DNA from: Pachysolen tannophilus NRRL Y-2460
Taxonomy: Eukaryota
Reading direction: 5' to 3'
NCBI GenBank assembly: GCA_001661245.1
Contig: KV454017.1
Location: 62,001-126,000, forward strand
DNA length: 64,000 nucleotides
Within the stretch, counting starts at the first letter, position 1, and each line of letters starts with the position of its first letter. The position numbers and the translations under genes were made by a program. Shown here piece by piece: positions 20,012 to 59,500 of this stretch. The notes below the pieces were generated by a model. It made no database searches. It saw only the letters and a list, made by a program, of their open reading frames with translations, and had not been told where the DNA came from.

Positions 20012-20046
<35 letters not shown>

Positions 20047-21537: not shown

Positions 21538-21674
21538 CTTTGAAGAAGAAGAAAGAAAAAAAAAAAAAAAAAAAAGAAAACAAGTTCTCTTCGCCTAAAT
21601 TAAAAAAAAAATGCTTATTATTAGTATACTTGAAATAAAACTTGGAAACCGTGAAACTAATACAATATTGATAT

Positions 21675-21723
21675 ACGTATAACGTATAACGTATAACGTA
21701 TAACGTATAACGTATAACGTATA
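21675..21723. repeat. Perfect heptamer tandem repeat (ACGTATA)x7 in the PCL promoter
   Basis: Read directly; followed by (AT)n and (GT)n. Confidence 0.9.
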
Positions 21724-22132
21724 TATATATGTGTGTGTGTCCGTGTGTGTCTGTGTGAACAACTTATTGTAACTTTTGTAAAACCTATATTATATAAAAT
21801 TCATTGAATTGGTAACCTGCTGATACCTTAATATGTTCTTTAGGCAAAAAACAAGTATTTTGCACAATTTGAATTTATACATCAACAACAACAAGACCAA
21901 CCAAAATCTTTAAATATAAAAATTTATAAATTTGTAAAAATAAAATACAAGTAATTCACCTTATCACACTAAATAAATATATATACTTACAATTTTCTTT
22001 AATATATGAACTGAATAAATTATTTTATTCTTCTATACTATAACTTTTATGATTAATTTAATGTGGTTTTATTTATTATGGGTATGTAATTAAGAAAAGT
22101 TATTTGGACCTTTGACAGAAAGTGGAGCGCAT

Positions 22133-22140
22133 CCGGGTAA
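22133..22140 (-). promoter_or_regulatory. Reb1-type site (CCGGGTAA) upstream of PET117
   Basis: Exact consensus ~130 bp upstream of the ATG. Confidence 0.5.
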
Positions 22141-22207
22141 AAACCTACAAAATTAAATAGATTAAATATATATTGTTGAAGTTGAAGTTGAAGTTGAAGT
22201 TTAGATA

Positions 22208-22240
<33 letters not shown>

Positions 22241-22269
22241 GTGATAGAGTTATTTATCAAGTTGTTAAG

Positions 22270-22619
22270 ATGTCAAGAGCTTCAAAGTTGACATTTGCCT
22301 TTAGTACAACATTTGCAGTTGCAACTACTGTAGGTGTTTATTATCTTCAACAATTTGAAAGAGATGTAAGTTAATAATAAATGATAATATTAAAAAATTT
22401 CTTTTTTTTTTTTTTAATTAAAACTAACATTTTGGTTTATTATTTGATTTGAAAAAGGCATTGAAATTAGGACCAGAGAAAGATGCTAAACGTGTAGCAC
22501 AATATAATTCAAAACAACTGGCAAATTTAAAAGATTTTGAATTACAGAAAAAATTAAAACAAGAATTTGAAACTCATCAACCATTAACAGGTGAAATAGT
22601 TCAAGGCCAAGATAAATAA
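22270..22619 (+). CDS. PET117: Cytochrome c oxidase assembly factor Pet117; exons 22270-22365 and 22458-22619
   Basis: MSRASKLTFAFS...QQFERD|ALKLGPEKDAKR; GTAAGT..AACTAAC..AAG intron; synteny PCL6-PET117-HMF1. Absent from the ORF track. Confidence 0.9.
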
Positions 22620-22775
22620 GTTAATAGTGGAGAACTAAGAAAAAAAAAAACTTGTTTATAGCAACTGTATATATGAATAGATATATTAACAATGATTATT
22701 ATGAATTATAACTTGTAGATAAATAGATAAATAGGTATTTGTTTTAATTATTTAGACGGAATTTGACTTTCCCAG

Positions 22776-22818
22776 GTCCCAAGGGGGAAGTCCCAAGGGG
22801 GAAGTCCCAAGGAAGTCC
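22776..22818. repeat. 14-bp tandem repeat GTCCCAAGGGGGAA (two full copies plus a partial), containing STRE-like AGGGG
   Basis: Read directly; upstream of MMF1/HMF1. Confidence 0.8.
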
Positions 22819-22974
22819 ACCTGTAACTGGGGCTATTTCTGGCGGAGATTTTAACCAAGATTCCGGTCAAGATTCCGGGCCGACTTTATAGTGAGAGAGA
22901 AAAAATTAAAAAGATAGAGAAAAATAATAAATATTATATTTAACTAATATAAATATATATTAGTTAAAATAAAT

Positions 22975-23525
22975 ATGTTTAAATCAATTGGATTATCTAA
23001 AAATTTTATTAGAATGTCATCTACTTTAACTCCAGTAAGTTTAATTGAGGATAAATAGAATTTTTTTTTAATTTTTTTTAATTTTTTTTAATCAATGAAA
23101 AAGAAGAAGAAAAATTCAATTGAGATTAGAAAAAAAAATACTAATTAATTATATTTTAATAGGTTATTGCTAAAAATGCACCACCAGCTGCTGCATCATA
23201 TTCTCATGCAATTAAAGCAAATGGATTTATTTATGTTTCTGGACAAATTCCATATACTATAGAAAATAAACCAGTTCAAGGTCCATTTCAAGATAAAGCA
23301 GAACAAGTAATTAATAATGTTTTAAATATTTTAAAAGAATCAAATTCTTCATTAGAAAAAATTGTTAAAGTTAATATTTTTTTAACTGATATGAATAATT
23401 TTAGTGATTTTAACAATGTTTATTCAAAATTTTTTAATTCTCATAAACCCGCTAGATCATGTGTTGCTGTAAAAGAATTACCATTAGGAGTTGATCTAGA
23501 AATGGAAGTTATCGCTGTTGAATGA
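22975..23525 (+). CDS. MMF1: RidA/YjgF-family enamine deaminase Mmf1/Hmf1; exons 22975-23034 and 23163-23525; second in-frame ATG at 23014
   Basis: ..TLTP|VIAKNAPPAAASYSHAIKANGFIYVSGQIP...HKPARSCVAVKELPLGVDLEMEVIAVE; GTAAGT..TACTAAT..TAG intron. Absent from the ORF track. Confidence 0.93.
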
Positions 23526-23744
23526 AAAAAAGAGCGATCAAAATGCGTTGCGCTTTCCATACGCTCTACGCTCTTTATACGCTCTACGCTCTTTATAGGC
23601 ACTCCACAATTAACTATTTAAACTGCGTGTAGTGTGTATAAATAACAAAATAAAATTAAAATAAAAAAAAAAAGGTTACATCATAGTAGTGTGCTTCAAA
23701 CAGATTTTGTAATTTTGTTTTTTAAATTTTTTCTTTCTCTCCTG

Positions 23745-23826
23745 TTAGGGTTTCTAGCCCTTTTCAACTGATTTTACATTTTACTTTTTCTTGTACTGCT
23801 TTCGCAGTCACAAAGTGTTTTACCCG
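23745..23826 (+). promoter_or_regulatory. RPL34 promoter: Tbf1-like TTAGGG..TAGCCCT (23745-23761), Homol-D CAGTCACA (23805-23812), Reb1-like TTACCCG (23820-23826)
   Basis: Motif matches read directly 280-360 bp upstream of a ribosomal protein gene. Confidence 0.5.
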
Positions 23827-24103
23827 ATTAACTGCCAATTTCTTTGATGTGTTTATATTTTTATTTTTTTTTTTTTTGGCAGATTGTCTCTTTAAAGTCT
23901 TTAAAGAAAAATTGGTGTTATTGACACGCTTTTTCATTGGAGAAACTTTTTTTTTAAATTTTTTTTTTAGTAAAATGAAAAAATTTCAAATTTCAATAGT
24001 TTTTTTCTTTTTTAAAAAAAATTACTATACAAATTTTTTAATATTATCTTTAATAGTAATTAATTGTATATTCATTTTTTTTTAACAATAATTCAAAGTA
24101 AAA

Positions 24104-24704
24104 ATGGCTCAAAGAATTACTTTTAGAAGAAGAAATCCATGTATGTGATGATTGATTGCAGTTTGCAAAAGAAATAGAAATGGAAATTGAAATGGAATGA
24201 TGGGGTTCTATATATGATGAATTTATCAAATAATTATTAAAATGGAACTTCATTATTATAATATTATTTTATTTCATTTCTTTATTTTTTATTTATTTAT
24301 TTTACACCTAGTTATATGTTGATACTAACGTTTAAATTTTCTTTTTTCTTTCTTTCTTTTCTTTAGACAACACCAAGTCAAACCAAATTAAGGTTGTTAA
24401 GACCCCAGGTGGTATTTTAAGAGCTCAACATGTTAAGAAACAAGGTACTAGACCAAAATGTGGTGACTGTGGTATTGCTTTACCAGGTATCTCTGCTTTA
24501 AGACCAAGACAATATGCTCAAGTTTCAAGAACTCACAAGACTGTTTCAAGATCTTATGGTGGTTCTAGATGTGCAAACTGTGTTAAGGAAAGAATTGTTA
24601 GAGCTTTCTTGATTGAAGAACAAAAAATTGTTAAAAAAGTTTTAAAAGATCAAGCTGAAAAGGAAAAAAAAGCTGAAAAGAAAACAAGTAAATCAAAGAA
24701 ATAA
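24104..24704 (+). CDS. RPL34: 60S ribosomal protein eL34; exons 24104-24140 and 24367-24704
   Basis: MAQRITFRRRNPY|NTKSNQIKVVKTPGG...PKCGDCG...SYGGSRCANCVKERIVRAFL; GTATGT..TACTAAC..TAG intron. Absent from the ORF track. Confidence 0.96.
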
Positions 24705-24923
24705 GTATGTCTTTATATATATTTGTAATTTGGAGGTAATGTAAAAACTTTTTATTAATTATTATTATTATTATTATTAAAGAGAAATTAAAAATTAGAA
24801 AAATTCAAGTAGTTTATAAATTGGATAAAAATCTTTAAATATTTTTAATCTTTTAGTAAATTTTATATATTTATTACTATTTATATTTATATAAATATAA
24901 ATATAAATATAAATATAAAATAT

Positions 24924-25493
24924 ATGGAAATGAATTCAGTTGAAAAACGATTATTAAAAGAATATAAAAATTTATCTAATGATGAAAATTCATTAAGAGA
25001 AAATGGAATTTTAAATTTGAATCCTATATCCGAAAATAATTTATTTAAATGGAGTTGTAATATAACAACAACACTGGAAAATTCTTTATATAAAAATTGT
25101 ATATGGGATTTAGAAATTGATATACCTCAAGATTATCCTATACAACCACCAAATGTAAAATTTTCAAATAAAAAAAATTTATTTAAAAAAGATAGTTCTA
25201 GTTTAAAAAATAATGAAATTTTATTTTATCATATGATTGGAATTGTACCAGTACATCCAAATATTAATTTTAAAAATGGTGAAATTTGTTTGGATATATT
25301 GAAAACAAAATGGACACCAGCATGGACATTAGAGTCAACAATTATTGCTATAAAGTTATTATTGGATGATCCAGAACCTTTATCACCATTAAACGTTGAT
25401 CTGGCAAATTTAATAAGGTGTAACGATTTAAAAGGTTATAAAGATCTTATAAATTATTATACTAAAAAATATGGTAAATTAGAATATAGATAA
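24924..25493 (+). CDS. PEX4: Ubiquitin-conjugating enzyme, Pex4-like
   Basis: KRLLKEY, YPIQPP, HPNINFKNGEICLDILKTKWTPAWTL, PEPLSPLNVD; near CAF130 as in S. cerevisiae. Confidence 0.8.
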   Translation: MEMNSVEKRLLKEYKNLSNDENSLRENGILNLNPISENNLFKWSCNITTTLENSLYKNCIWDLEIDIPQDYPIQPPNVKFSNKKNLFKKDSSSLKNNEILFYHMIGIVPVHPNINFKNGEICLDILKTKWTPAWTLESTIIAIKLLLDDPEPLSPLNVDLANLIRCNDLKGYKDLINYYTKKYGKLEYR

Positions 25494-34482: not shown

Positions 34483-36069
34483 ATGTCAGAAAGGGAGCCA
34501 TTAATGGTTTCTGAGAACCCTTTTGAAAACGAGCTCACAGGGACACTTAGTCGTGTTTCCAAGAAGAGTGGTAATAATAACGGTAGTGGTAGTAATGGTG
34601 GAAGCAACGTCAATAAAGCCACACAACAACAGACAAAAAATTTCAAGACGAAAACTTTTGATAATAAATTAGCAGGACCACAAAGAAGAACCACTCAGAA
34701 GTTGAAATTATTACCAACAGAAAGTCATGGAACTAATAGTGATGATTTGGAGAGTCACATGGGGAATAATATTCATGAAAACTCTGTTTATTCTCAAGTT
34801 GGAAGAATAAAAGAAACTCCTGCTAGAAAAGATGCTGAGAGATTAGGTAAGAAACATAGATCATTATTACCAAGAGTTACTGCATATTGTACATGTGGTT
34901 CTTACAAGATGAAGGACTTAGTAAGGTGGTTGAAAGATAGAAAGAGAATCCATGGTACTTCACCAAAATTATTTGATGAATGTTTATACACACCTTTTAC
35001 CTATAAAGATTGGAGGAACAATAATAACAATAACAACACTGGTAGCAGAAGCAATAGTAATGATCACCTTGGCTCTCAGAAAAGGACAAGGACAAGTTCT
35101 AATTCAATTATAGATAAAAGTAGTACTTCAGATGAGGCTAATAATGAATTCATTAGATTAGATGACGAAGGAGGAGAAATAGACGTTGGTTCAAGAAACT
35201 CCGATGCATTCATATTTGATTATGGAGTTGTAGTACTATGGGGTTTCACTGTAAAAGAAGAAAAATCTTTTTTATTAGAGTTGGAAAGATTTGAAAATGA
35301 AAAATTAGCTGATGAAGATATTCAAATTGAAGAGTTTAATTATTATGTTACTAAAAGTTATCAACCTAGAATTTATAATGATTTTATTACTTTGAGAGAC
35401 GATTCAAATTATATGTTGAAGTTATCTATATCTCATGCCGCCGCTCAATCAGTTAAAATATCTTTATTCGAAGAATTAGTAGATAATACTATTGAAGATA
35501 CCCTGGATATTCCTCAAGAAATTGCATACTCGGGGAAAGTTGGAATGACCAGAGAAGAGATTATGAAAAGTATTGGAGAGTTATTTATTTTGAGAATTAA
35601 TATCAATTTGCATGGTTCTGTTTTAGATTTACCAGAGTTAATGTGGGCAGAGCCTCATTTAGAACCGATTTATCAAGCTACAAGGGGTTACCTTGAAATA
35701 AATCAAAGAGTAGCTTTGCTTAACCAAAGATTAGAAGTCATATCTGATTTATTGCAAATGTTGAAGGAGCAATTGGGACATACAAATGGTGAGTATTTAT
35801 TCAACGTGACAACAACAGATGGAAAACTAGTCAAAAGAAGAAATTTACTAACCTTTATTTTTTTTTTTTCTCTGTACCTTTAGATGAGCATCTTGAATTC
35901 ATAGTGATTGTTTTAATTGGAGTCGAAGTCATAGTTTCTATTATTAATGTAAGTATTTATCATTTCAATTAAGAAAATTTTGTTGGTTTTGAAGATCAAA
36001 TGTTTTTGACATACTAACATACAATTTTTTACAATGAAGATTGTTGTGGATATTATTGCTGATGTTTAA
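34483..36069 (+). CDS. RMD1: Rmd1 (DUF155) protein; exons 34483-35788, 35884-35948, 36040-36069
   Basis: GPQRRTTQKLKLLP, LPRVTAYCT, FDYGVVVLWGF, YLEINQRVALLNQRL; two 3' introns restore the C-terminal GHTNDEHLEFIVIVLIGVEVIVSIINIVVDIIADV. Confidence 0.92.
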
Positions 36070-36331
36070 CTTTTCGGATGATTTCTAATTTAATATCTTA
36101 CGATATGAAAAGGGATTTTTCGTTATTTTTGCTTTCTCTATTCAAGAAATTTATTTGTAAAGGAAATAAAATTAAATTTTTGTCAACTACATTTGTAAAT
36201 ATTATAATAAACGTATATAATACCCTGCTTTATTTTTAATTAAAGTTATAAACTAATATACAATTCGAAAGACCCCATTCATACATAAATTCTTGAAATT
36301 TTTTGTTTTTTGTAAGAATTTGATACTCAAC

Positions 36332-36727
36332 TTATAATTCTTGGGAAGCCTTAACTTTACCAGATTTCTTTGGTAATAAGTTTTGGTGAATGTTTGGTAA
36401 GACACCACCTTGAGCAATGGTGACATGACCTAACAATTTGTTTAATTCTTCATCATTTCTGATGGCTAATTGCAAGTGTCTTGGGATAATTCTAGATTTC
36501 TTGTTATCTCTAGCAGCATTACCAGCTAATTCTAAAATTTCAGCAGCTAAATATTCCAAAACTGAAGTTAAGTAAACTGGAGCACCAGAACCAATTCTTT
36601 GAGCATAGTTACCCTTTCTCAATAATCTATGAACTCTACCGACTGGGAATGTTAAACCAGCTTTGGCCGATCTTGAAGTTGAAGCTTTGGCTGATGAACC
36701 GGCTTTACCACCTTTACCACCTGACAT
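36332..36727 (-). CDS. HTA2: Histone H2A (SQEL C-terminus)
   Basis: [27 protein letters not shown]...KASQEL; divergent from H2B. Confidence 0.98.
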
Positions 36728-36994
36728 TTTTAATAGTGTATAGTATTTATATGTTAATTTAAAAAACTAAGAATAGTTATGAAGAAAAAACAATACAAAA
36801 AAAGAAAAAAAAGGAAAGAAAAAAAGGGAAAAAAAAGAAGAAAAGGAAATTACCACCATCCACACTGACCAGGAAATCCAAATCCATTTATACAAACACC
36901 AATCACCATTGCTTCGATGTCATTATAATAGTTCTGTAACTGAAAAATTAATGTGTGTAAATTTGAGAATGTCAACAAAAACAATGCATAAATC

Positions 36995-37001
36995 TTTCGC
37001 G
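36995..37001 (-). promoter_or_regulatory. SCB-like element (CGCGAAA) in the divergent histone promoter
   Basis: TTTCGCG on + strand, midway between the H2A and H2B starts. Confidence 0.35.
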
Positions 37002-37238
37002 TTTTTTTATGTTTTTGTATGTTTTCTAGTATTGAGCCGCAGTGTAAATTCCAGTATATGTCAACAAACAGCGACAACAACAACAATATCAGCAAAACAC
37101 GGTGAATAATCTTGGAAAGCATATAAGAATGAAGATATCCTTCGGCAGTTTAGGTAACCTTTTTGTATTTTCTTTTACCTTTTTGTTTATTTTGTTATCA
37201 AATTTAACTAATTTTAACTTACAAATAATCAATTAACA

Positions 37239-37619
37239 ATGGCACCAAAAGCTGAAAAGAAACCTGCTTCAAAAGCACCAGCCGCTAAGAAGACTGCTGC
37301 ATCTTCTGAACCAAAAAAGAGAAACAAGGCTAGAAAGGAGACTTACTCTTCTTACATTTACAAAGTCTTGAAACAAACTCACCCAGATACCGGTATCTCC
37401 CAAAAAGCTATGTCAATCATGAACTCTTTTGTTAACGATATCTTTGAAAGAATTGCTTCAGAAGCTTCTAAATTAGCTGCTTACAACAAGAAATCAACCA
37501 TCTCAGCTAGAGAAATTCAAACTGCCGTCAGATTAATCTTACCAGGTGAATTAGCTAAACATGCTGTCTCAGAAGGTACTCGTGCTGTTACTAAATACTC
37601 ATCTTCCACTTCTGCTTAA
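37239..37619 (+). CDS. HTB2: Histone H2B
   Basis: [42 protein letters not shown]...[18 protein letters not shown]. Confidence 0.98.
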
Positions 37620-40600
37620 GTTTTATAAGATGATAATTTAGGTGCAATTTAAGGGGTATATTTCTGTTGTGTATATTAGAATTTTATATAATGAAGGTTT
37701 GAATATTTGAAAAACAAACTTAGTAGATTAAAGGACCGACTCTCCCAATAAACAGTAGATTCGTTGTAGTCTGTAATGCAATTACCTTTCTTCATTATAT
37801 ATACACACTTACAAGTATATACATATATAAAGGTAGTGCAAAATATCTTTATTATCTCATATGCATATTTTAAGATCAATCTTAAACTAATATTGTGCAT
37901 ATAAAAACATACAATAGCTCTTTTCAACCGCAAGATCATTATTCAGTTTATTTGCCATTAACAAAAAGAACCGAAAACTTCTAAGAACCAATTGACATCT
38001 TTGAAAGTTTCTCTTACTTTACCTCAATAGCCAAACCTTTCTACTTTTTAGTTTGAAACTTTCAAACGACTTTTTTTTTTTTTAACTGTAATTAATATTT
38101 TATCTATCTTTTCTCTTATACATCTTTTTCTTCTTTGACTAATTTCAAAATCACCTCTGCAAGCTATAAATGAACATATTTGAGGAGTAAATGTAAACTC
38201 ATTTTCGAAAATATTTTCTAAACATTTGGATACTTCTCTAAATCCTTTGGAAAGGAAAGAATTTTAGTTATTAGGATTTTTGAAAAGAAGCACATTATAG
38301 ATTGTATAAAACTGAACTTTAGGGAATATTCTCCTAACTTTAATTCGACTCGCTGATTCTTAAACAAAATTGGATATCTATCGATTTCACAATTAGTTAA
38401 ATTACCTCAATCTTCTTTCTCGACATCAATGCCTTCTGTATCGATGAGACACAGTAGAAGTAATAACTTTTTTTTTTTATTATCACTATAATCAATCCAT
38501 TACACAAACTACATAACTTCTTCCTGATTATTTCATAGGAGAGGCATTTTAAGAAGTATAGATTCCAATCCACTTTTACTTCTTCAAATACAAATCCACA
38601 TCTACCGCAAGAAAGTTTTTCAAATAAAATTGCTTCATGCAACATTATTTTCATTAAAAGCAATATAACAATAAAGTACTAAAGTTTAACTTTTGTGCAA
38701 CTTTTAGATTTCTATATCAAAATTGTTAAAGGTCCAGTAGAATACTACCAATATTTCGTTTAGCGTATACCCCACCTTCTTGATAAACCTATGAATAAAC
38801 TTATAGACGGCACCACTTAGATTACTAGCATTGTTACAAGGAGAGAAACCACTTAGTACTTTCAAGTTATATATGCTCATTTAAAACAATTACTTCGTAA
38901 ATTTTCGAACTTAAGTCTTACAACTAATTACAACTAAATACCTTAAAAACAGCATCATCAACTTATTTCTATATTTCCTCTTGCAACAAAATCCACTCAA
39001 TGCAATTGAAAGCTTACAATCTTTTTGCTGGGAAAAGGAAAAATCTCTGAGCATCAGGAACTAAACGAATACAATTAGTTTTAGTTGTGAAACTGGAACT
39101 TTGTCATTTAGGATTATCTAAGTTTATTTTTCTTTTTTTTAAAAAAAGACAAGAATACAAATGAAATAAACCGAAAACAATTCTTAGATAACTAATATGT
39201 TTTCTTCGATTTCTGCTTTGTATTTTGTTTCTAAATAATGATAACTGTTAAGTGTAATTGAGACAACCACTAAACCACAAAAGACGAATTTTGCTAATTA
39301 TTTTTATCTATTTTAACCTTTGCTTCTAACCCTTTTCCCAAACCCAAGTAGTGTAATTCTAGACAAAAGACATAATATTTTAATTAAAGTATTCACGCAT
39401 CATGTTTGATAACTATTTGAGGAGGTTGCATCTCGAATATTTTCAAAATCTAATATATATTGAAATATAACAAATTGTTAGTCAAATTTAACTACTACTA
39501 CTACATGCGTAGGTGAATTTTTTTTAAATGAATCAGTAACCTACAGATAAATTCTATTTGTCTGATAAGAAAAATCCTTTTGAAGGTTAAATCTTTAATT
39601 TCCAAAAACCAAAACAAAAGTAGACTTATAAAATCAGTTATAATCAACCGAAAGTTTTTCAAATAATGGACTAATATATATATCTCCACCGTATTTGCTT
39701 TGCTTCAACTGTTAATCCGCATTAATTCTCAGATTTGAATATAATCATGTTTATCTTAATTGTATGGAGAAAAATTTCTTTTCAATGAATGCCAGACTCA
39801 TAAAATCATTATTATACATTTATAACGTTCAAAAACAAGTGACTTTCACTTTTTTAAAATCCACTTTAAACAGAAGGCTAAAGTTGGACAAGCGTATATT
39901 TCACTTTTCGTTACAATTCTCTCCTACAATCAACCTTCGATAGGTAACAGTTAAATAGTTACTGTTTCTAAAGATTCTTTATTCTATTTTTCTTATTCTC
40001 CATTTTTGTTCATAGATAACAGAACTTGCGTATAAAAGAACCCAGTTACTAGTCATTCATTCATCATATCTTGACTATCAGCTAACTGGAATCCTTCATG
40101 ATTACTATCTAGACTAAAAATTCGTCTTCACTGGTTTACGAAAAAAGATATTAGTTTACACATTAGCTTTGTCAAGGGGTGTTTTTCGTTTCACTTCCCA
40201 AATAATTCAAAAGATAATAACTTTTAAGAATAAGCAATGCAGCCATATAAAACAAGAATATAAAATGAAATTAAGCGTAAACTTATAGTTGATTAAGGTA
40301 AACTCATGCATTTAATAATTTTCTCTTCTGACATGGAAGGGGTTTCTTTGATTTTTCTATAGCGTGATACCGTTTCTCTCAACATCCTAGTTTTTCCAGT
40401 ACTGAAATATCAATAACTAAAAATAATATTATAAAAGAAAAACACACATTATACTAGTATCTGTAGTTAAGGATTAAAATTCAGGAACTTTGTTATGCAT
40501 CACCTCAACTATTCTACAATTAGAATGTACCTTGTCAATCAAAAATAGTTTAGGAAAAAATCAGACATAGATTACCGATAATTCAATTTTAATTTCTATT

Positions 40601-43600
40601 TTGCTGATTACCGAGCATTTAGCTACTGTTACAATCAGTTTCAGACTATTTAATATGAGATGATACCAGAAACATCTACCTAAGCAAATCGTGACAGTTG
40701 TTTTGAAATCGTTTGTCGAGGAATATAGACTTATAACTTATAGTTACCGACTTCGTTGGTTTTCACTTGTCAAATGGTTCAACTTATTATTAGTATTCTT
40801 TTTTTTTTTTTCTAAAAACGAAGTTAAGAGTTGATGAATTTTTAATCTTTGTCCGCTGCAGCAGGTCCAAAGAGAAAAACTTTGTCAATCATTTTCTGAA
40901 GCCAGATATATACATATATATGTATAAAGTTTTGAAAATTAAATCTCCTTTTGCCAGACAACACTACTAACCTGTAAGACAGTCCAAAAACAATCCATAT
41001 TTAGCATGAATATTAAATGCTAAAGTGATATTAAAATGTACTCCATTTTCAAAAGTAAGGTTGAAGTCTTACCTTGCAACTACAGCTTGCAATTGCAAAA
41101 AAAGGAAACCGAGCGAAGCAATAATGTGATGTTCACCTCCAAGACAAACATAAAACTCTTCAATTCTAAGACTGAAGAGACACGATCTTACTAGTTGACT
41201 CTCGAAATTGTGTGATGTGGTAATGTAGAATTTGTCACTAAAGGTCAGTTTAAGAACTTATTTTTTGGATTGCCGATGTAGGTTAATTCCATCCCACTAT
41301 TGAAACACGAAAATAAATTTGTAATTACAATTTAATGAGCTTTAATTGACATCAAACTAAATTATATAAAAATCATGACAAAAGAAATTATGCTGGAATA
41401 ATTGTTAGGAAACCGCTTTAGCCGCCATCACTTATAAAAGACACAACTCTGGAAACATTGATTGCAGCGATCTCGTACATGGCATTTCAGAGTACAAAGG
41501 TTGAGTTTAGTTATCTGTTATAATTTTTTAGGAAGGCATAATTCACAACTGGTTAGGTGCACATACATTTCGAAAAAAATGAACTTAAAAAAAAGTAAAA
41601 CTATAATAAATACTGTAGGAAAATCTTTGCACAAGCAGCTGTTTGATACATTTAAGAACTTCACACAAGCTCTCTTACGTTTTCTGAATAGCAGCAGTCT
41701 TTCTTTTAATTTTAATTGTATTGAAATAACTTTAACAAACGGAATTAGTTATTTTGCGAAATGAAATATCTTGAGTTTGCACTGCTTTTATCCCACTTCT
41801 GTAATATTCTATCACACTTCTTTAAGGAAGATTTAAAAATAAAATATCTCAATCTTAATACAGATTTAGTTTCCTTAAGTATTGTTCTCCGGAAGTTTTT
41901 ATGTTATTATGCGGTATCTTATGCAGTGCAACCGTTCAATCGTATGAAGCAGGACAAACTTCTGAATTTACATTGAATAGCAAGATTCGAAGGTGATTAA
42001 CTTGTACGCTATCAAGTAATTTGAACATCTAAATTTTTGCTCGTGCAGTCAGTATACCCCTTTTCCAACTGAAACGTTAAAAGAAAGAATAGAAAGCATC
42101 TAAGGCCTTGCTGATATTAGTGTCTGTTTTTTGCCAAATAGTAGTTGTTGCAGGTACATCCTTTTAGAGAAATAATCCACAGGTCAGAGTATAAATTATA
42201 TACGATTAAACGCCATCTAAGGGAACAATAAACCGTTCCATAAATGGATACCGATTTGTTTTTATGTCAGTATTTGAGTAATACTGTTAGAAAAACTTAG
42301 CTCAACTCAATCCTCCTTATTTCAAATGATGAAATGAAAAGAATTAAATAATAGTTCTGTAACCCCTGGGCTGCAATTCAAGAATTGAAAGTATTGGATC
42401 TTCAGATGAGAAGAAGCACTTATTTCTCCTTGCAGAAGAAATTTATTTTAAGAGAATATAAAGACGATTAAAATAATATGCTTTTTTATAATAAACAACA
42501 TGTATATGGGCTCCTAACCACTAATGATTATTTTATTGTTGTTCATCATTAAGTGTTATACAGACCTATTATTAAAATTGTGTTTCAGTCATTCTTGGAA
42601 GTTCAAAAGCAGGAGATTCTGAAATCTTTTTGTCAGATATTTGTTGTAAAATCTTTTGAAGCAAAACCAGGTTGCAGTTCATTAGATAAATGCTGAACAT
42701 ACATTTTTTTCCTGGAAACTCATCCTACTTCTGAGGTTGGAGTTCGTTGTATAAAAAGCTTAAGAAATATTCATCACCTGGATGATCAACTAATTTCTTA
42801 AAAAATAAACCAGATAAGATTGAAGGGCTACAGAGATCAGTTATGATCTTAAATTAGCATTTGAAAAAAGGGAAAAAGATTTGGAAACATGTAATGTTGA
42901 TGATTCCTTAACGTTATTTTGATGACACCTCGTTTTACCCCGTTATTGAAAACTGTATAGCTTTGAAAATGAATTAAAAACATGTTGAACTCTATATCGT
43001 AATTAAGTGTAAATTTATCAAGAGAAAGATAGTGTTTAATCAAGTAAGGACATTACTAGTAAATACTTTTAAGTTTGATGTAGTAAGAATTATATTGTTT
43101 TGTAAAATCATACCCCTTTTGTTTGAGCCTCGTACCTTATGTCATGGGTTTAATGAAAGGCTATTTAAATTTCCTATAAGTATTTTGATTCAATAAAATG
43201 GAAGGAGATTAATTATCCAAAGACAAAACCACAGCAAATGTTTTAAAAAAAAGATTTTTATCTTTACGCATCGTAGGTCACTAAAGTTTTAACTGAATGA
43301 TGCATATTTGGCATTTTTCTATAACAAAGTAATCAGAACTAAAATTGTAAGTATAAGGAGAAAAACTTAATTTGGAGCTTTAAGTATCTTTTCTGTTTTT
43401 GAAGAGTCAGATCTTGTATTAAAGAGTCTTAATGATAAATATCACACTATGATGTCAAGAAACTCAAAAGCTATTAACACCAAAAGGCTTCAAAAAGGGA
43501 GAGTTTTGTTTAGGATTACCAGCTTGTAAAGAATTTTAAAGACTTTTGTTTAAAAGATATTGAATTTTTAGTTAAATTTCGAATATAGTGAACAGCTAAA

Positions 43601-45249
43601 TGCAAGGCAGTCAAAGAACGTTTACTTCTGTTATAATGATTCAAATAAAGGGGTGCAGATTAATTGTTTTCACAAAAAATCTATACGAGTCAATTAGTTT
43701 TATTGATAACCTCAAAATTGAGTAACCGTAAGAAATAGCCATAAGTCGATAAAGGACTAAGCCAACTGATTGCACTTTCGAAAGTATTTCAGTTGACATT
43801 GATTAGAATTTCAGTAATTAGGGATTCTCAATTTAAACTTTTTGGGATTGAGAATTATTACAAGTATAATAGGGTCCTGTGTCTCTCTTTACTTGGATAT
43901 AAATGTATACAAATATCTACCCAAATTTGAAAAGCATATTTTAAATTTTACGAGAAATCCATCACGTCAAAAATCAATGTTGTTACTCAGTCAGTCCTGT
44001 TTCCCTGTTAAGTAAAACCAGATTACAAAATATTATGCATCACTGATATAAATGAACTTTTAACCTTGCAATTACTAGAAATTTTTTTCTCTTCTATGAG
44101 AGAAAGCTAAATCATTTGAATTAAAAGATTAAATAATTTATTATTAAAATTGACAACAACAAACTGTTGTATGAATCGAAGTCATTATTTGTTTCTTAGA
44201 AGTTAGATAATACCCTCTTTTAGGATTCAAATTTATATTAAGGTTATTCGTTTCCTAAGATTAATATAGGTTTGAATTTGGAATTCTTATTTTTAAGTTC
44301 TATCATTTCTATATTTGCATGTAAGATATCTTTATGGTTAACTAGATTTTATTAAAAGAATTTATTAAGAACCATTCTAATGCTTACCTCCCCATTCTGT
44401 AATTTTAGGACATTTAAGTAATACTTTCGAAGTTCTGTCGACTATTGGATTAGAAACTTGCTACTATGAATGATTTTTTAATGTGATAAATACCGCACCA
44501 ATGTTAACAGTTGCTGTCGTCTCATTTCCCTTAAAATTAATATTTTAAAAACAAATTTAGTATCGAAGGAAGAAGTGAGTACATTTCAAAATAGGCGACT
44601 TAAGAACTGTTTTGCAAGGACGGTTGGACTTTTCATAACTAATGGTGCTGGGGTTGTATGCCAATAGAGAACCACTAAATCTATATGTAAAGTAAAAGAT
44701 TCCAAAAATATCAGGGTCTAAGGTAAAAACGGCCCCATAAATTGCGGCTGTTTTGAGTAAACCCCTATTCAATACGAATTTAGTTTTGAAAGATGGAACA
44801 AAAAAAACCCTTTATCAAGTTCTGACCACTATTAGTTTTTAATTGCATTAAAAAAAAGATATAATACTACTAATAGTGATCTAGCGATTTTAAAATTGTG
44901 ATTTTAAAATTTCGGTTCTCTTGTTCAAGTTCATCGGTACACTTTCCCCAATTGTAGTAGTATAAGCTATAACGTACTTGGAGATTATGGTGCAAGCTCT
45001 TGGCATTTTACTTCAATCGAATTTGTTTACAGTGTTCCTGGTATTCTTTGATTTAGTTTGTGATAAAACATTTATGACTACTACCAGTTCTTTAAAAATA
45101 TGGGAGTTCTTTTTCATTCTGTATCGCTCGATTTGTATATATAGTTATAATAAACAATAACCAAGAGATCAATTTATAACTGTAAAATCTAGTAAACTTA
45201 CAATTTCCTATACTTCTATATAATCATAATCAATTAACTGAAAACATTT
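37620..45249. other. ~7.6 kb gene-free block; candidate regional centromere
   Basis: No ORF over 100 aa and none recognisable; lies between two converging 3' ends; other intergenic spacers in the window are at most ~1.5 kb; flanked by orthologues of centromere-adjacent genes. Confidence 0.65.
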
Positions 45250-46595
45250 CTAACTGTACACTTTATTCAAAAATTCTAGCATTGGCAGTCCAACTTTATC
45301 ATGAACATCATCAGCCCATAAGACATCTAAATGGGCATAGTTATCAAGATGTACGGCTTCGAATTTTTTGTATTTGGGTTCATAAATGTTTAAATGTTCC
45401 ATCAATTTTTGTCCATCCACAAGCTTATCGAGTTCTGCAATAACTAGTAACATTGGCGGGGTATTCTCATTAAACCAGTTAACCTCGTGATTGAAAATTG
45501 ATTTGGAATCTACAAATCCATCGCTACTTAGCCACCATTTCATCAATTGTGAACTAACATATACTGGGGAAAATAGAAAATGTATGCTTCTGAGACTAGG
45601 ATCCCATAACAGATCACTCCAACCAAATAAATAACTAAACATTGCATAACTTAAAAACCCAAAAATTCTTCGTTTATATATCAAATTTCTAAAATCCATC
45701 ATAATGGGCATAAACGAATTGATACCGAAAAATAGCTTATAGCAGGTAGGTGTTAACTTATTAATGAACTTGATGAAAAATTTTTCATTTAATAAGCGAC
45801 CACCGTACACAGCAGGAGCTAAAGCAATAAAACTTTCCACTTTATCTTCGAAATGTCTACTATGTTTTGGAGAGAGTGCAATAAATGCTTGTGTACTACC
45901 CTGTGAATGACAACATAATGAAACTTTAGAATAATGAACATTAATCTTTAGAATGTTATCAATCATGCAGGGTAAGTCCTTTGTTGCCATATCCACAAGA
46001 TCCCAAGACCACATTGCGGGATCATTTGGTGATAAAAATCTATGTTCCGGGTTGAATCCACATCTATTATTCCCTAACCATACATCATATCCTTTTTCAA
46101 ATAATAAGAAGCTAAGACTTTTAACTCCACTAGTTACAAATGAACCTGATGATTGTAATAATCCATGCAAAAGTAAGATTGGTGGTTTTTGGACAGTATC
46201 ATTTTCCTTTGGATCAACTAAGCGTTGTAGTATAATATAAAACCCATCTTCAGTTAAAAGCTTATATTGTTGTAATTCCAATCCCAAGAGATTGACATAG
46301 TACCTTAAGTCTTTAACTAACTTTATTTTATTTATGCTCGTATGTGGATATGCTTCTTGATGATTTTTTAAAGGTTCAATTCTAGTTCCTGACTGTTTCA
46401 ATTTTGGAAATAATTGATGAAAGATAGCCATTATAAACAATACAGTTAAAAAAAAAAAGTACAAATTCCTGAAGTCATCTTATAAAAATAACTTTTCATC
46501 ATTGGTGCCTTTTCATGTTTTTTTGATTGTATATTAGACACAAATGAATCAATAGTATGTATACTATTATTATCAATATGATCTGTACTTCTCAT
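45250..46595 (-). CDS. YEH2: Steryl ester hydrolase (Yeh1/Yeh2 family); N-terminus interrupted by a 1-nt frame break at the T11 run (46448-46458)
   Basis: LLTEDGF, PILLLHGLLQSSGSF, GYDVWLGNNR, HSQGS, YAHLDVLWA; syntenic with IRC25-SDO1-IZH3. Start uncertain (46595 or 46431). Confidence 0.82.
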
Positions 46596-46894
46596 GATTC
46601 AATTGAATTAATTCTAAACAAAAAAGCAGTTCAATTATCGTCCACGGCTACTCATTTGATAAATGATTCAATAAAACTTTCAACTTCTTTTGAAACCTCT
46701 GTTCATTCAATAAATAAATAAATATATTTATATATATATAAATTACATATATATATATATATATTTATTTATTTATTTAATACACACGTAAACAAATTTT
46801 TTTTAAATAATTTTTATTTTTCAATATATAAAAAATAAGGAAAGAATTAACATTTTTACAAATTAAAATAGCAGAATAAGAGAGAGTAGATGAA

Positions 46895-47317
46895 ATGGAA
46901 GTATCAGAAGGTTTTAATGCTAAAAGCTTAATGAAAAGTTATGATAGTGAAAGAGAATTTTTGTTTCAGGTGATATATTTTACCAATAAGACAATACTAC
47001 AAATACATTTGAATGGTGAAATTGATTACACAATAGATTTACAGCTTCCCAAATTGGCAAATACTCTGGTATATGAAGATCAACAGATTGAATCAATGAT
47101 AGGGACGAATTATATAATTGGGAATAATGATAATTATAAAATTTTGATAATGTCTACACAAATTGGGAAATTATTTGTCAAGTTAGGTAAAATTGAAGTT
47201 GATTTGGTTATAAGTACAAGTTCTAAAATTTTTGGTAATAAGATTAATTCAGAGATTGGAGATGATGATTTTAATTTAATGATGTTTATATTAGAAGCTA
47301 TAAAAAAATTGTTATAA
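46895..47317 (+). CDS. IRC25: Probable proteasome assembly chaperone Irc25/Poc3 (PAC3-like)
   Basis: 140 aa; FTNKTILQIHLNGEID..IG...KILIMSTQIGKL..LVISTSSKIFG; position between YEH2 and SDO1 matches S. cerevisiae YLR020C-YLR021W-YLR022C. Confidence 0.7.
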   Translation: MEVSEGFNAKSLMKSYDSEREFLFQVIYFTNKTILQIHLNGEIDYTIDLQLPKLANTLVYEDQQIESMIGTNYIIGNNDNYKILIMSTQIGKLFVKLGKIEVDLVISTSSKIFGNKINSEIGDDDFNLMMFILEAIKKLL

Positions 47318-48130
47318 ATTTTTATCACCTTCTTCAATTACGGCCATATCAAGTACTTCTATATGAGAGTTTTTATTATTTTTTAATAATTCAACAATCT
47401 CTCTATAAAATACTGGATCAATAAATGAAATACATTCATAATTATTCCCATTATAATCTTCATCATCTATTTCTGTTAATAAAAGTTTAAGTTTATCGTT
47501 TAATTTTTTTTGATCTTTTGAATCCATAGTTAATTTAATTTTCATCTTTGCTCTAGCAATTGGTATAATTTGTCTTTCAGTTAAAATTTTAATTGCATCT
47601 AATGCTTGAATTTTTGCAGTTTTAGTTGGAACAATATTAAATTTTAATTCATTTAAAGCTTTTGAAATCATTGTTGGAGGATACCTTTTTTTCGTCTTTG
47701 GATTTACACATTTTGTACTAATCAATTGTAAAATTTCATTATGTACTTGTTGAGTATTTGCTTGTCTTTCCTTTTCACTTAATTGAATTTCACCTTTAGA
47801 AAGAATTTCCATAACAATTTTATTTGTATCAGTTGTACCAAAAGCTTTTTCTAAATCATCATTAGGAGCAACAGAACCTTTAGATACATTAAGAAAAACT
47901 TGAGGTATTTGCAATACTTCATCCAAATCTTTTTCTCTAATAAAAATGTTAATATTACCATATAAATAATATCAAATAAAATGCAAAAAATGAAAAACTT
48001 ACACATTAGACCTCCAATCTTGGACTTTATTCTGATAACAGGCAATTTCAAACCTCTTTTTACCTCTTTTCATCCTAACAACAGAAACATTGGTCAACTT
48101 GATTTGATTCGAAGGCTGATTGATTGGCAT
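47312..48130 (-). CDS. SDO1: Ribosome maturation factor Sdo1 (SBDS); exons 48130-48003 and 47936-47312
   Basis: [63 protein letters not shown]; 66-nt intron GTAAGT..TATTAAC..TAG gives a 250-aa protein. Confidence 0.95.
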
Positions 48131-48393
48131 TTTCTGAATTTATTGATACAACCAGAATAACATCAGGTAAACTAATTCACTAACTAACTAACTTTTAAGA
48201 CTTTTCTTTATTTTCTTTTCACCTTCTTTTACCGCTCTCTTTTTCTCTTTTTCTCTTTTTCTCTTCTCTTCTCTTCTCTCAGCGGAAAAGGAGAAGAAAA
48301 AACCAAAAAATATCTCCAGTTTTTTTGTTTCTGTTCTCCGTTTGGGAGAAGAACACGAAAAAAATTTTTTTTTTAAAAAAATTTTGAAAAAAG

Positions 48394-48424
<31 letters not shown>

Positions 48425-49054
48425 CGAAATTTCCTCTCCAGCCTGAAACCTTCTCCATTTTCAGGGATCTTGCCTATCTAGTTTCCTACATGGAAGAGAC
48501 ACATGCACCTCAATCACCCTATTTCTTAGTGTAGTCTTGAAATTACGCTTAAAAAATATTCAGAATCAGAATATATTATAAAAAAAAAGAAAAAAAAAAC
48601 GTTTCTTCCGGAACGGAGAAAAGACGTTGTGGTATGTCAAATATTAACTCGGAAATTTTAAGTGGTTCATATCGAAAGAGTATGAACATGAGCATAGAAT
48701 GGGAATGGAACATAATGTTTTATTATTATTATTATTATTATTATATTATTATTATTAAATTAATTAATTAACCATTCTTTCTTTTATAAATTATAATATA
48801 TTATAATTTTTTTTTTTCAAAAAAAAAAAAAAAACAAAAATTTAAAAGGTATTGAATTACCTAATATAAGATAAATTTATAAACTATTATTCTTCTAATT
48901 GTTGTTGTTGTTGTTTTCAATTTGAAGTTAAAGAAACTAGCTTTCCACTCATTTTTTTTTTTATTTTTCTTATTTTTTTTTTCAAGAGTACAATCTTTTC
49001 ATAAAACACGTTAAACACGTTATATTCATTTAAAAGGTTAAAAGGGGAAAGAAA

Positions 49055-50581
49055 ATGTCTGCTGCATATTCATCTGGCCGTTATCATCATCAAAATAGTA
49101 CGAGTACAGTGACTATAAATAATGGATTAGACGGTGATATTCAATTGTTTGAAAGAATTAGGAAATCTGTCAGTCCGACACCTTCCGAGATATCATCATC
49201 GGCAGAGTCATTAGAAATGGATCTGATGTTGAGTGATAAATTAAATGAGTTTATTTCTTCTACTTTGAAAAAATTCTTTAGTGTTGGTGATAATTTAAAT
49301 ATTGATCTTACAAAATATGATAGTATTTATATGTCTCTTGATAAATTGAAATCATCAAATGAGGATAAAAAAATTGAAATATTGAGTAAAATTTTAGATG
49401 ATCATTATTCTGAAATTTTTGGTAAAAGTGTTTATTGTTCTTCTCTTAATGAAAAATTATTATTAGGTTTGAATTTTTTGGAAGCAAAAATTCAAATAAT
49501 GTTACAACATAATAATTTTGCTGAAATTAGAACTACAGAATCAGATAAACGTGAAATTGTTAGTAAGGCATTCCAAAATTTAAATATTCAATTCCATAAT
49601 TATGAAAAACTGATTGAATATGGAGAAAATGGATTATTACATTATTGGGAATTACCATTTCCTTGGAGAGAAAATAAATTTATTGTTTTTGGTTATAGAT
49701 TTAACAATAAATTTTCAGATTGTGTTAGATCAATTTTTGCTATACATAATGAAACAGGTAATATTTGGACACATATAATTGGATTAATTATTATAATGTA
49801 TTTGGCATTTATTCATTTCCCATCAACAAATGTTTTCCATTCTTTTGATATGACAGAAATTATAATCATATATTGTTTTTTGATTTCTTCAATCAAATGT
49901 TTAACTTCATCAGTTTGTTGGCATACTTTTAATTCAACTTCAGTGTTACCTGTTAGATCTAGATTTGCCTGTGTTGACTATGCCGGCATTACAGTTTTAA
50001 TTACGGCTTCTATTATCACCACAGAACATTGTGCATTATACTATTATCCAAAACCAAGACATCTTATCATGTTGGTATCATTAATTGCAGGAATATCTGG
50101 TTTTGGATTCATATGGTCTCCTACATTCGATACTCCAAGGGCAAGACCCTTTCGCATTTTTTTCTTTGTATCGTTAGCAACAATGGGTCTGGCATCTTTT
50201 ATAATTTTATCATTCTTTAAAGGTTTTACAAATACTTTTATTTACTACTCACCTTTAGTGAAAAGTTTGGCTTCATACATTATAGGTGTCATCTTTTATG
50301 GCTTATTAATCCCAGAAAGATTCAGAAAAGACGTTATTGTTGATGATTTTGATATATGTGATGAAATTTTAAATGAGTTAAATACAAAAGATGATTTAGA
50401 AAATCATTTTAAAGTACCAGATAAGATTGAAAATCATGATAAATTCTCCTCTCTTTATTGGGTTGATTATGCTTTTTCCTCGCATAATATCTGGCATACA
50501 TTTGTGGTTGGTGGTATAGTGGGCCACTATTTTGCCATTTTGGAAATGTTTAACAATATTAATGTCAATAAACCAATATAA
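49055..50581 (+). CDS. IZH3: PAQR-family membrane protein, Izh3-like
   Basis: LPFPWRENKFIVFGYRF, HNETGNIWTH, SVCWHTF, DYAGITVLI, PERFR, SSHNIWH. Confidence 0.88.
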   Translation: MSAAYSSGRYHHQNSTSTVTINNGLDGDIQLFERIRKSVSPTPSEISSSAESLEMDLMLSDKLNEFISSTLKKFFSVGDNLNIDLTKYDSIYMSLDKLKSSNEDKKIEILSKILDDHYSEIFGKSVYCSSLNEKLLLGLNFLEAKIQIMLQHNNFAEIRTTESDKREIVSKAFQNLNIQFHNYEKLIEYGENGLLHYWELPFPWRENKFIVFGYRFNNKFSDCVRSIFAIHNETGNIWTHIIGLIIIMYLAFIHFPSTNVFHSFDMTEIIIIYCFLISSIKCLTSSVCWHTFNSTSVLPVRSRFACVDYAGITVLITASIITTEHCALYYYPKPRHLIMLVSLIAGISGFGFIWSPTFDTPRARPFRIFFFVSLATMGLASFIILSFFKGFTNTFIYYSPLVKSLASYIIGVIFYGLLIPERFRKDVIVDDFDICDEILNELNTKDDLENHFKVPDKIENHDKFSSLYWVDYAFSSHNIWHTFVVGGIVGHYFAILEMFNNINVNKPI

Positions 50582-56591: not shown

Positions 56592-59500
56592 TTACCAAAA
56601 GCTATCATTATTATTATTATTATTTGTTTTTTTAATGCTTCTGCCTGCTGTTTCGTTATTGTTGTGATTATTATCTGTAATGCTATTATGATTGGGGTTG
56701 AAACTATGCCCAAAATTGTCGCTGCCAACACTATCGCCACTATTACCACCTGGAATACCAGTAGAGACAGAAATAGGTTTACTTGAAGCGTTTTTAGAAT
56801 AATTTGTTTCTGAAAAATCTGGGACAGCGCTACTACCATGACTATTGTGCAATTGATTGCTTTTATTAGTAATATTGCTAGTGGATGCCTTTGTTGCCTT
56901 AGATGTTTTTGTTGCCTGTGCTCCTTGTGTTCCTTGTGTTCCCTCATTGTACTGGTTACCTCTGAAAATACGTATTGAGCCATACCCATCGGTATCTGTA
57001 TCGGTGTTATTATTGTCTTCATCATTTTCATCGGTAATTAACAAACCTCTCCGCTCATCCAAGATTTCTGATTCAAAACTTTTATTTCTTCCTAAAAAGA
57101 AAATCAAAAAACATGATGTAACAAAGAAAATTATCAAGATTCCTAAGAGTGCACCAATACCCATTGCTACACCTGGTAATTTTATATGTGGAATACTCGA
57201 AGAAGGTTGATTTAACCAATCTGGAGAAATTGGTCTATCTATTAAAAAGATACATGATTTAACATCACCATCATAATAAGTTTTTGAAGTACAACCTTTA
57301 CTTAAAATTCTAACTTCTTTATCTTTACCTTCAGCAATTTGTAACATATAATTACCTGTTGATAACTCCCTACATGATAAGTTGGAATTGTTTAATAAAG
57401 TTGGAATTTTTGATTCACAATTTAATAAACTTTCCACAGATGTTGAAGGTAAAATGTGTAATCTTAAAAATTCAGACATAAACTCTGGATCTGTGAAAAG
57501 TGTAATATTTTCCAATAATAAAGATCTCGGTGTTGGTAAAATTAAAGAATACCCATTATCGAAAACTTCGTTAGAAAGATTAAATAAATCTAAAAATTTT
57601 AAAAATTCAAACGATTTTGTTGTTTCAACCAAATTTTGTAAAGTAATATCCAAAGATTTCGGGAAAATAACATCTTCCAAAACATGAACTACACCTTGAT
57701 TAAATAAAATATCCGAATTTTTAACAATTTGAAATTCAGTTCCATTTAAAGACATTAATTGATTTTTATCATCTGGTGTAGATGAATTTGAAGAAATAAC
57801 TATTGGATCACCAGTTAAAGTTGTAGAAGTTATTTCACCAGTGAAATCACTATAAATTAAATCTTCAATAATATTATTTTCCATTAATATTGCTAATGCA
57901 GTTTTATTTTGAGTTAAATATTCCCAAGTTAATTCTAAATTTTCCCAAGCTTCATGACAAGGTAAAAATAAAGTATATCCCTTTTTATTGTTGGGTAATA
58001 TAATTAATCCCAATTCATCTAAATAACTCATAGATTTAGAACATGAGAAATATGGTCCAGTGGCAACATCTAATCTTGGAGGAGGTGTTAAATTATCATC
58101 CATTAAATAGATATATGTATTTCCAACTTCTATCTTTGGTATATCTTCATTTATATAAACATGATTATTCAACAAAATTTTTTCATTCAATTTTGTAATT
58201 TTAATTTTTTGACAATTATCTCCTAATTTTTTATAACAAAGTTTACTATCAACTAATTTACTTGAATTTAAATCAATTTTACCTTGAACAAATTGATATA
58301 AATCTCCATCTTTATGACTATCTGAGATAGACAGGAAATCTTCATCTGATGATGAACTAGTGACAAACAAAGTTTGTTCCAATTCATTATCATCGATGAG
58401 ATAATTTAAATGTTTAAAATCTAATTCTTCCACAAAGATAGAATTGTTTAAACCTAATAAATATTTTCTAGGTGTGAAAACTATTGGATCTACCATAAAA
58501 CTATCATTTTGGAAAAAATGTAAGATTCCATCAGATGCTAATACGTTTGAAATGTTTGATTTATAGAGTTCATCAATCAATACAGTATGACCATGATTTT
58601 GTGAAGTTATATTATGCAAATTGTTGTTGAGATCAGCAACAACCATAACATTAGAATTGCAATTTGAAGTTGAAGTTGAAGTTGATGTTAAGGTTGTTCC
58701 TAATGACAATGGTTGTGAATCGCTAACGTTGCCACCAACATATCCATTTGTGAAATGACCATTTATATATTTCAATCTATCAGTTTCACTAATTATTGAA
58801 GAAAATGTTAAATAATTTAATTCAATTTCATTAAAAGTTATTGCCAGATCAAGAGGAATAAAACCAGTTACATTTGTTAATTTTCCACAAGTTTCTTTAT
58901 CTTTAATTAATTTTTGAAAAATTAAAATAGTTTTAGAAGAATTTAAATTGTTCATTAATTGATTACAAATATTATCATGTTCTTTGTATAATGAAGAAAT
59001 TCCATGAACTATTGAATTTTGTGATGTAGCAAACAAATCTGGTTCCACAACTTCTGAATCTTCGAAAAAAACAGTTTCATAATCATAATCATAAAATGAT
59101 AAAATTGGATATTGTTTTTTGTTTTTAAAAGTTTTAGAAATTAAAGTTCCTTTTAATTTAATATCATCAGTTGTAATATAGGAATCCAATATATATCTTT
59201 TAATATCATTCTCTAATTTCATCGATAAAGAATCAAATCCATCTTCAATAACAAAAGCAGAATTAATAGGAGCTAATAATGTTATATTTTCCAACAGATT
59301 TAAATATGGTACCATACCAATCTGTTGAATTGCCCTTAAAAATGAACTAAATTCAACATCACCAGATAAAACATCAATCACCGTCCTGGTCACTTGTGGA
59401 TCACCATCTTCCCCATTATCTTGCTTACCTTGATCTTGCATCGTCCCAATGGGCACCCCATTAGCATACCCAACCACATACGCTATAAGTAACAGCGCTA

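Follow-up and report, generated by a model that had tools for sequence, protein, structure and literature searches.

The centromeres of Candida albicans and those that lie beside the histone H2A-H2B gene pair are the described systems closest to the locus analysed here, a gene-free and repeat-free block of 7,630 bp from Pachysolen tannophilus NRRL Y-2460, which we regard as a candidate regional centromere. The block occupies positions 37620 to 45249 (no strand assigned) of a stretch of 64,000 nt, hereafter the window, which corresponds to positions 62,001 to 126,000 of the forward strand of contig KV454017.1 (GenBank assembly GCA_001661245.1). The centromeres of C. albicans occupy gene-free stretches of 4-18 kb, of which 3-5 kb are bound by Cse4 (PMC12711049). 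Koren et al. (2010; PMC2924309) described them as long intergenic regions in which the GC (guanine-cytosine) skew turns from negative to positive and the GC content is above that of other non-coding DNA, and ascribed the skew and the raised GC to a constitutive, earliest-firing replication origin. For the second system, Haase et al. (2026; PMC13017519) reported the H2A-H2B cluster as a strongly conserved centromeric gene order in the comparison of Pichiomycetes with Saccharomycetes, and Hession et al. (2025; PMC12711049) located the ancestral CEN3 of two Phaffomycetales species, Starmera quercuum and Wickerhamomyces anomalus, between PCL1 and HTB2. That centromeres persist beside H2A-H2B while their structure changes is already published in these two papers.

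The block in P. tannophilus is, on balance, probably a repeat-free, unique-sequence regional centromere of this chromosome, situated at an ancestral position. This reading, reasonable though unproven, draws on anatomy, composition and position as independent lines of evidence. Like the centromeres of C. albicans, the block is several kb of gene-free unique sequence with no required repeat, a GC skew that goes from negative to positive and a GC content above that of other non-coding DNA. It differs from them in belonging to another order, the Alaninales, in an AT (adenine-thymine) skew that is absent here and opposite in sign there, and in the weakness of the GC skew in its right arm.

With the Anc_CEN3 of Hession et al. 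(2025) and the H2A-H2B example of Haase et al. (2026) the candidate shares its place directly beside the H2A-H2B pair. The far side is different: in the published cases it is PCL1 (Phaffomycetales) or the NTH1-UGA2 region, whereas here it consists of YEH-like, POC3/4, SDO1, IZH and YLR001C-like genes; in addition, no ECM15-type gene was found between H2B and the gap by the six-frame Pfam search described below. The published H2A-H2B-linked centromeres have a point, inverted-repeat or Ty5-cluster structure, and the block has none of these. Ty5-cluster centromeres, found in Ogataea polymorpha, Scheffersomyces stipitis, Cyberlindnera, Saccharomycopsis and Pichia terricola and listed at 4-100 kb in Supplementary Data 3 of PMC13017519, are like the block in being gene-free, of comparable size and conserved in position, but the block is without a coding relic in any frame and without repeats of the size of a long terminal repeat (LTR). 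Inverted-repeat centromeres (Komagataella phaffii, Pichia kudriavzevii, Candida tropicalis and C. parapsilosis) are likewise gene-free, measure from a few kb to tens of kb and have halves that are antisymmetric in composition. A further likeness is to Ambrosiozyma ambrosiae and A. philentoma (Pichiales), in which Krassowski et al. (2019; PMC6692504) reported the order YLR001C-IZH3-[11-19 kb gene-free]-MATalpha-EFM5. Both there and here a large gene-free block lies near YLR001C and IZH3; its far side carries the MATalpha genes and EFM5 in Ambrosiozyma and H2B-H2A in the present locus, and both blocks are centromere candidates only.

Anatomy and content of the gene-free block

The block is bordered by the stop codon of an H2B gene on the left and by that of a YEH-type lipase gene on the right. 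As both genes converge on it with their 3' ends, it is not promoter DNA. The window contains 32 ATG-initiated open reading frames (ORFs) of at least 100 amino acids, none of which lies inside the block; the longest ATG-initiated ORFs within it encode 87, 85, 71 and 61 amino acids, and its longest stop-to-stop frame, at 41462-41764, spans 100 amino acids. When ORFs of at least 100 amino acids alone were used to delimit the spacers, the runner-up was a gap of 3,386 bp at 21538-24923. We rejected this gap as a second desert, because the six-frame read-through search showed that it contains PET117, a RidA/L-PSP gene and RPL34. The block is thus the only true gene desert in the 64 kb. With these three small genes and two transfer RNA (tRNA) genes included, the window has 29 spacers; the block, at 7,630 bp, is 4.97 times as long as the next one (1,536 bp), and on average the 28 spacers besides the block measure 581 bp. 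These results agree with a first-pass annotation of the same DNA, which had described the block as free of ORFs, lying between converging 3' ends and about five times longer than any other spacer. Gaps of equal size elsewhere on the chromosome, which that annotation had regarded as telling against a centromere, do not occur within the window, the sole rival being the 3,386-bp gap that holds genes.

No tRNA gene was found in the block (the two of the window are at 8438 and 56311), and a search of 36000-47000 against Rfam, with E values up to 1 allowed, gave no match. A Pfam search with 32 ORF pieces of the block gave a best match of E 0.0057, which is below the curated cut-off. When the six frames were read through stops and matches with E of at most 0.1 were considered, the block yielded only NRG2_N, a sub-threshold chance match with 14.1 bits against a cut-off of 27. 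The same read-through search recovered the three small genes in 21538-24923, which serve as a positive control for its null result in the block. The period-3 signal ranged from 0.5 to 2.6 in seven 1-kb segments of the block, compared with 3.4 to 30.7 in coding DNA (25 segments) and 0.2 to 1.9 in spacer DNA (four segments). We concluded that the block is not coding and not recently coding DNA.

Relics of retroelements were also absent, with no reverse transcriptase, integrase or gag in any of the six frames. A repeat search of the window and the block returned only chance-sized matches of 20-40 nt and no LTR-sized repeats. The longest inverted pair with both arms in the block is 29 nt in length and 76% complementary, and the best block-internal match by blastn with word size 7 is 65 nt long with 69% identity (E 0.077). 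When the two halves of the block were aligned locally with each other, similarity did not exceed chance: 19 of 40 shuffles scored at least as high in direct and 8 of 40 in inverted orientation. The first-pass annotation had seen no kb-scale inverted repeat, LTR or gag/pol frame, and the repeat, blastn, half-against-half and six-frame searches bear this out.

The known structural types of centromere could be judged against these results. The Ty5-cluster type was rejected, since the block has neither Ty5-like coding relics nor multiple LTRs. The inverted-repeat type was rejected on the 29-nt inverted pair and the inverted score of the halves, and the blastn and half-against-half alignments likewise led us to reject an ancient inverted repeat as the origin of the antisymmetric skew reported below. 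Point centromeres are marked by CDEI, an AT-rich core and the CCGAA of CDEIII; a scan of the whole window on both strands for this set, with a core of 70-200 bp and at least 85% AT, gave 0 matches, and the point type was also rejected.

Base composition and GC skew

The GC content of the block is 0.291, compared with 0.247 in the other spacers (16.5 kb) and 0.303 in coding DNA. It varies between 0.23 and 0.36 in 200-bp windows across the block, and composition runs smoothly over both block borders. Runs of poly(A/T) of at least 8 nt number only nine, or 1.18 per kb, while every other spacer of at least 460 bp has 2.2 to 10.4 per kb, in line with the earlier remark that long A/T tracts are largely lacking here. 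There is one (AT)5+ tract, and there are three AT-only runs of at least 18 nt. A leave-one-out 4-mer score placed the block (0.038, n=15) between spacer (-0.126, n=19) and coding DNA (0.125, n=64), and separated it from the two with Mann-Whitney p values of 5e-6 and 1e-5. The composition of the block is therefore neither that of coding DNA nor that of ordinary spacers.

The GC skew divides the block into two arms. The left arm (37620-41202) is C-rich, with skews of -0.06 to -0.35 in 500-bp windows, and the right arm (41203-45249) is weakly G-rich. Counted over 37620-41000 there are 402 G and 552 C (skew -0.157), and over 41001-45249 there are 661 G and 606 C (skew +0.043). The minimum of the cumulative GC skew is at 41203, and only 4 of 5000 permutations of the G/C labels yielded an equally deep V. 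The AT skew is essentially nil in both arms (-0.011 and +0.011). We infer that the turn at about 41.2 kb may mark a replication origin or the centre position of the candidate.

Three words are over-represented in the block relative to the other 56 kb: AAGGGGT/ACCCCTT (6 versus 1), TTCGAAA (9 versus 6), which contains a palindrome, and ACTTTCG (4 versus 0), with Bonferroni-corrected p values of 2e-4 to 2e-3. Their contexts have nothing in common, and we rejected them as a motif family. The dinucleotide CpG is slightly less depleted in the block, with an observed/expected ratio of 0.67 versus 0.55.

Flanking genes, genetic code and other features of the window

The flanking genes, HTB2 and YEH2 included, are named here from their family and neighbourhood and not from orthology tests. 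On the left, the histone H2A gene (36332-36727, minus strand; Pfam Histone_H2A_C 5.3e-21 and Histone 5.2e-16) is divergent from the histone H2B gene (37239-37619, plus strand; Histone 6.5e-21), the 3' end of which abuts the block. In Saccharomyces cerevisiae, HTB2 lies two genes from CEN2. On the right, the 3' end of a gene for a YEH-type sterol-ester/lipid hydrolase (45250-46431, minus strand; Abhydro_lipase 2e-15, with Abhydrolase_1) abuts the block, and it is followed by a gene for an IRC25-like proteasome chaperone of the POC3/POC4 family (46895-47317, plus strand; POC3_POC4 2.7e-15) and by a 3' exon of SBDS/SDO1 (47312-47812, minus strand). This exon covers only domain II and the C-terminal domain (SBDS_domain_II 9.8e-26, SBDS_C 4.7e-13). 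The N-terminal domain must be encoded by an upstream exon inside the 1.2-kb 'spacer' at 47813-49054, so that the spacer there is shorter than listed. An IZH-family (HlyIII) gene (49055-50581, plus strand; HlyIII 6.1e-47) begins 3.8 kb to the right of the block. The order on this flank is thus YEH-like lipase, POC3/4, SBDS/SDO1 and IZH, then a RAD18-like RING-SAP protein and a fasciclin-domain protein. The gene for the last of these (56592-59441, minus strand; Fasciclin 2.3e-24) lies 11.3 kb to the right of the block and is YLR001C-like, its orthology being presumed.

In S. cerevisiae, YEH2, IRC25, SDO1 and IZH3 correspond to YLR020C-YLR023C. In the gene table for H. uvarum of Haase et al. (PMC13017519), IZH3, YEH2 and SDO1 have the identifiers g003050, g003055 and g003057, respectively, which suggests that the three are neighbours there too, if the identifiers are positional. 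According to Krassowski et al. (PMC6692504), YLR001C immediately adjoins a centromere in S. cerevisiae. As judged from sequence, therefore, both flanks consist of genes that in other yeast orders adjoin centromeres or a centromere-like desert. Searching metagenome contigs with the lipase protein brought up no more than two distant loci (31% identity), which gave no help with synteny, and the gene names looked for are absent from three text supplements of PMC12711049.

The genetic code of the host could be read from CTG codons in the window. The public copy of a SUR1/CSH1-like protein encoded at 6612-7625 differs from the standard translation only at its six CTG codons, in all of them by alanine in place of leucine. 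Of 17 aligned homologues, 12 have alanine at CTG position 123 and 9 at position 263. CTG 367 of the NEO1 homologue aligns with the alanine of the ...IPAD... motif of S. cerevisiae Neo1, while the CTG of PEX4, which aligns with Met/Ser, and one ceramidase CTG, which aligns with Ile, are uninformative. Altogether, the 25 window ORFs use CTG 74 times among 12,573 codons. We concluded from these alignments that the host decodes CUG as alanine and belongs to the CUG-Ala clade (Alaninales), the clade to which the first-pass annotation had assigned this DNA; the SUR1-like and NEO1 positions confirm the assignment.

Some further features of the window were observed. The three small genes in 21538-24923 are PET117 (two exons, about 22198-22619), an L-PSP/RidA gene of the MMF1/HMF1 type (23163-23525) and RPL34, encoding ribosomal protein L34e (24336-24704). 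All of them, some being spliced, were missed by ORF lists with a floor of 100 amino acids. The gene order in 9406-25493 is SYG1-like, NEO1, HIS1, a PCL-type cyclin, PET117, MMF1/HMF1-like and RPL34, an order presumably like that of two paired S. cerevisiae blocks, YIL047C-YIL052C and YER055C-YER059W. The PCL-type cyclin (19633-21537) has very long Q and N runs in its N-terminal half, one of them of about 20 Q. Two alkaline-ceramidase genes of the YPC1/YDC1 family (2764-3681 and 4068-5165) lie in tandem on the same strand and are 59% identical over 286 residues, a local duplication. A run of 421 N at 7745-8165, just upstream of a tRNA-Met gene (8438-8509), is a scaffold gap or a masked stretch; it is the only such run in the window and is far from the block.

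The centromere reading, its alternatives and its meaning

If the block is a centromere, it would carry a domain of Cse4/CENP-A nucleosomes of a few kb, kept epigenetically on unique DNA free of genes and repeats. No defined motif, inverted repeat or Ty5 cluster would be involved, and the site would work like a small regional centromere of the C. albicans type. The scarcity of poly(dA:dT) tracts would fit DNA that is wrapped in nucleosomes and has no promoter role, and the skew turn near 41.2 kb together with the raised GC may be the mutational footprint of a constitutively firing origin in the middle of the centromere. The site would be inherited rather than new, namely the ancestral H2A-H2B-linked position, which Hession et al. 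number Anc_CEN3, and would here adjoin an arm with IZH3 and YLR001C, genes that are linked elsewhere to another centromere or to a centromere-like desert. The proposal of a unique-sequence centromere in the first-pass annotation is thus partly supported: as far as a single window can show, it has the gene desert, the lack of relics and repeats, the distinct composition, the skew turn and the synteny in its favour, which would fit a kinetochore function.

Several points weigh against this reading. Each flank matches a different ancestral centromere neighbourhood, so that an exchange of arms, or a different ancestral order, is required; an arm exchange of this kind was described for Barnettozyma by Hession et al. 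(PMC12711049). The match to the skew of C. albicans is only partial, as the AT skew, which should have the sign opposite to that of the GC skew, is nil, the GC skew of the right arm is weak (+0.043), and the 200-bp GC windows show no local dip at the skew turn. The sense strand is G-rich in 22 of the 25 window ORFs, and the V-shaped skew could therefore also be a trace of divergent transcription or of divergent genes of great age. The last point concerns Ty5, of which the block bears no trace in the six-frame Pfam search or the repeat search. To our knowledge, the species in Supplementary Data 3 (Ty5-cluster positions) and Supplementary Data 7 (assemblies) of PMC13017519 belong to no Alaninales genus. 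The same paper states, unlike what is seen in the block, that the Alaninales have Ty5-cluster centromeres; no species name was found for the statement in its available text, and Pachysolen, Nakazawaea and Peterozyma have no entry in these two data sets or in the eight supplementary files searched.

The block could be functionless old DNA, that is, genes or a mobile element decayed past recognition and unrelated to segregation. Its GC content close to that of coding DNA (0.291 and 0.303) and a 4-mer make-up that leans to the coding side would agree with this, as would the sign of the skew in each arm, which is that expected for sense strands pointing outward from the middle. Yet codon periodicity is lacking, there are no LTR-like or terminal repeats, and no Pfam family appears in six frames, though the method found the three small genes in the control gap. 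Moreover, fully decayed sequence should have drifted to the spacer composition, with a GC content of 0.247 and frequent A/T tracts, and the block has not; nor would decay explain the centromere-linked genes on both flanks. We consider this origin unlikely. A little less likely still is a former centromere, in which the active centromere has moved away from the ancestral H2A-H2B-linked site and left an inert gene-free relic. A recently abandoned site would show identical positional and compositional evidence, and centromere locations are reportedly polymorphic in C. parapsilosis (PMC7263194). Documented cases of budding-yeast centromeres that moved and left the old site behind are the new centromere at MAT in Barnettozyma californica and CEN3 of C. 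sargentensis, which shifted by 60 kb (PMC12711049). In a compact genome, however, one would expect 7.6 kb without a function to be lost, the block is still distinct in composition from ordinary spacers, and the 64 kb hold no other candidate, with no second desert and no motif set resembling a point centromere.

A long non-coding unit or a regulatory domain is a more doubtful explanation again. The block would then hold one or two long non-coding RNAs, divergent from about 41.2 kb, or act as a chromatin buffer for the highly expressed histone pair. Given the G-rich sense strands of 22 of the 25 ORFs, the skew turn could be a bidirectional promoter, and few A/T tracts are also typical of transcribed bodies; but no Rfam family was found at E up to 1, 7.6 kb would be extraordinary where the other 28 spacers average 581 bp, and low-level transcription is compatible with a centromere as well. 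An assembly artefact, either a chimeric join or a collapsed region, is very improbable. The one N run in the window shows that the assembly is a scaffold, but it is 30 kb away, and the smooth composition over both borders argues against a join there. In addition, a fraction of 0.98 of the 31-mers sampled from 36301-46300 recurs in contigs from five runs of two studies, and one of these may be the source of this DNA; the figure measures the presence of 31-mers and not contiguity.

Literature searches on centromeres of Pachysolen and the CUG-Ala clade returned no mapped centromere for this order in the text available, and Coughlan et al. (2016; PMC5010909) and the 'snail plots' paper (PMC13232491) hold nothing on synteny or centromeres of this clade. 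Krassowski et al. (2019; PMC6692504) called it unclear how silencing of the Pachysolen MAT locus is achieved, which suggests that there was no Pachysolen centromere map in 2019. The novelty claimed by the first-pass annotation is thus weaker than stated, as centromeres beside H2A-H2B are already published, while its impression that none had been mapped in the CUG-Ala clade stands for the literature searched. The candidate is a testable prediction within an existing framework and opens no new question.

If the reading is true, the block would be the first concrete centromere candidate in the CUG-Ala order, structurally 'naked', and would extend the recent finding that budding-yeast centromeres change in structure but hold their position. 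Repeat-free regional centromeres would then be represented by a second lineage, and the 7.6-kb fragment could be tried for plasmid stabilisation in this group of xylose- and glycerol-fermenting yeasts. As a tentative generalisation, to which we give somewhat less than even confidence, the centromeres of the Alaninales may be of the C. albicans type, that is, of unique sequence, free of repeats and Ty5, epigenetic and with a constitutive central origin, and the one described here may sit at an H2A-H2B site that has served since before Pichiomycetes diverged from Saccharomycetes. If so, the 'naked' form would have arisen independently of the Serinales, by loss in situ of the ancestral Ty5 cluster, and the locus would be a natural example of a centromere identity that has outlived all of its DNA.

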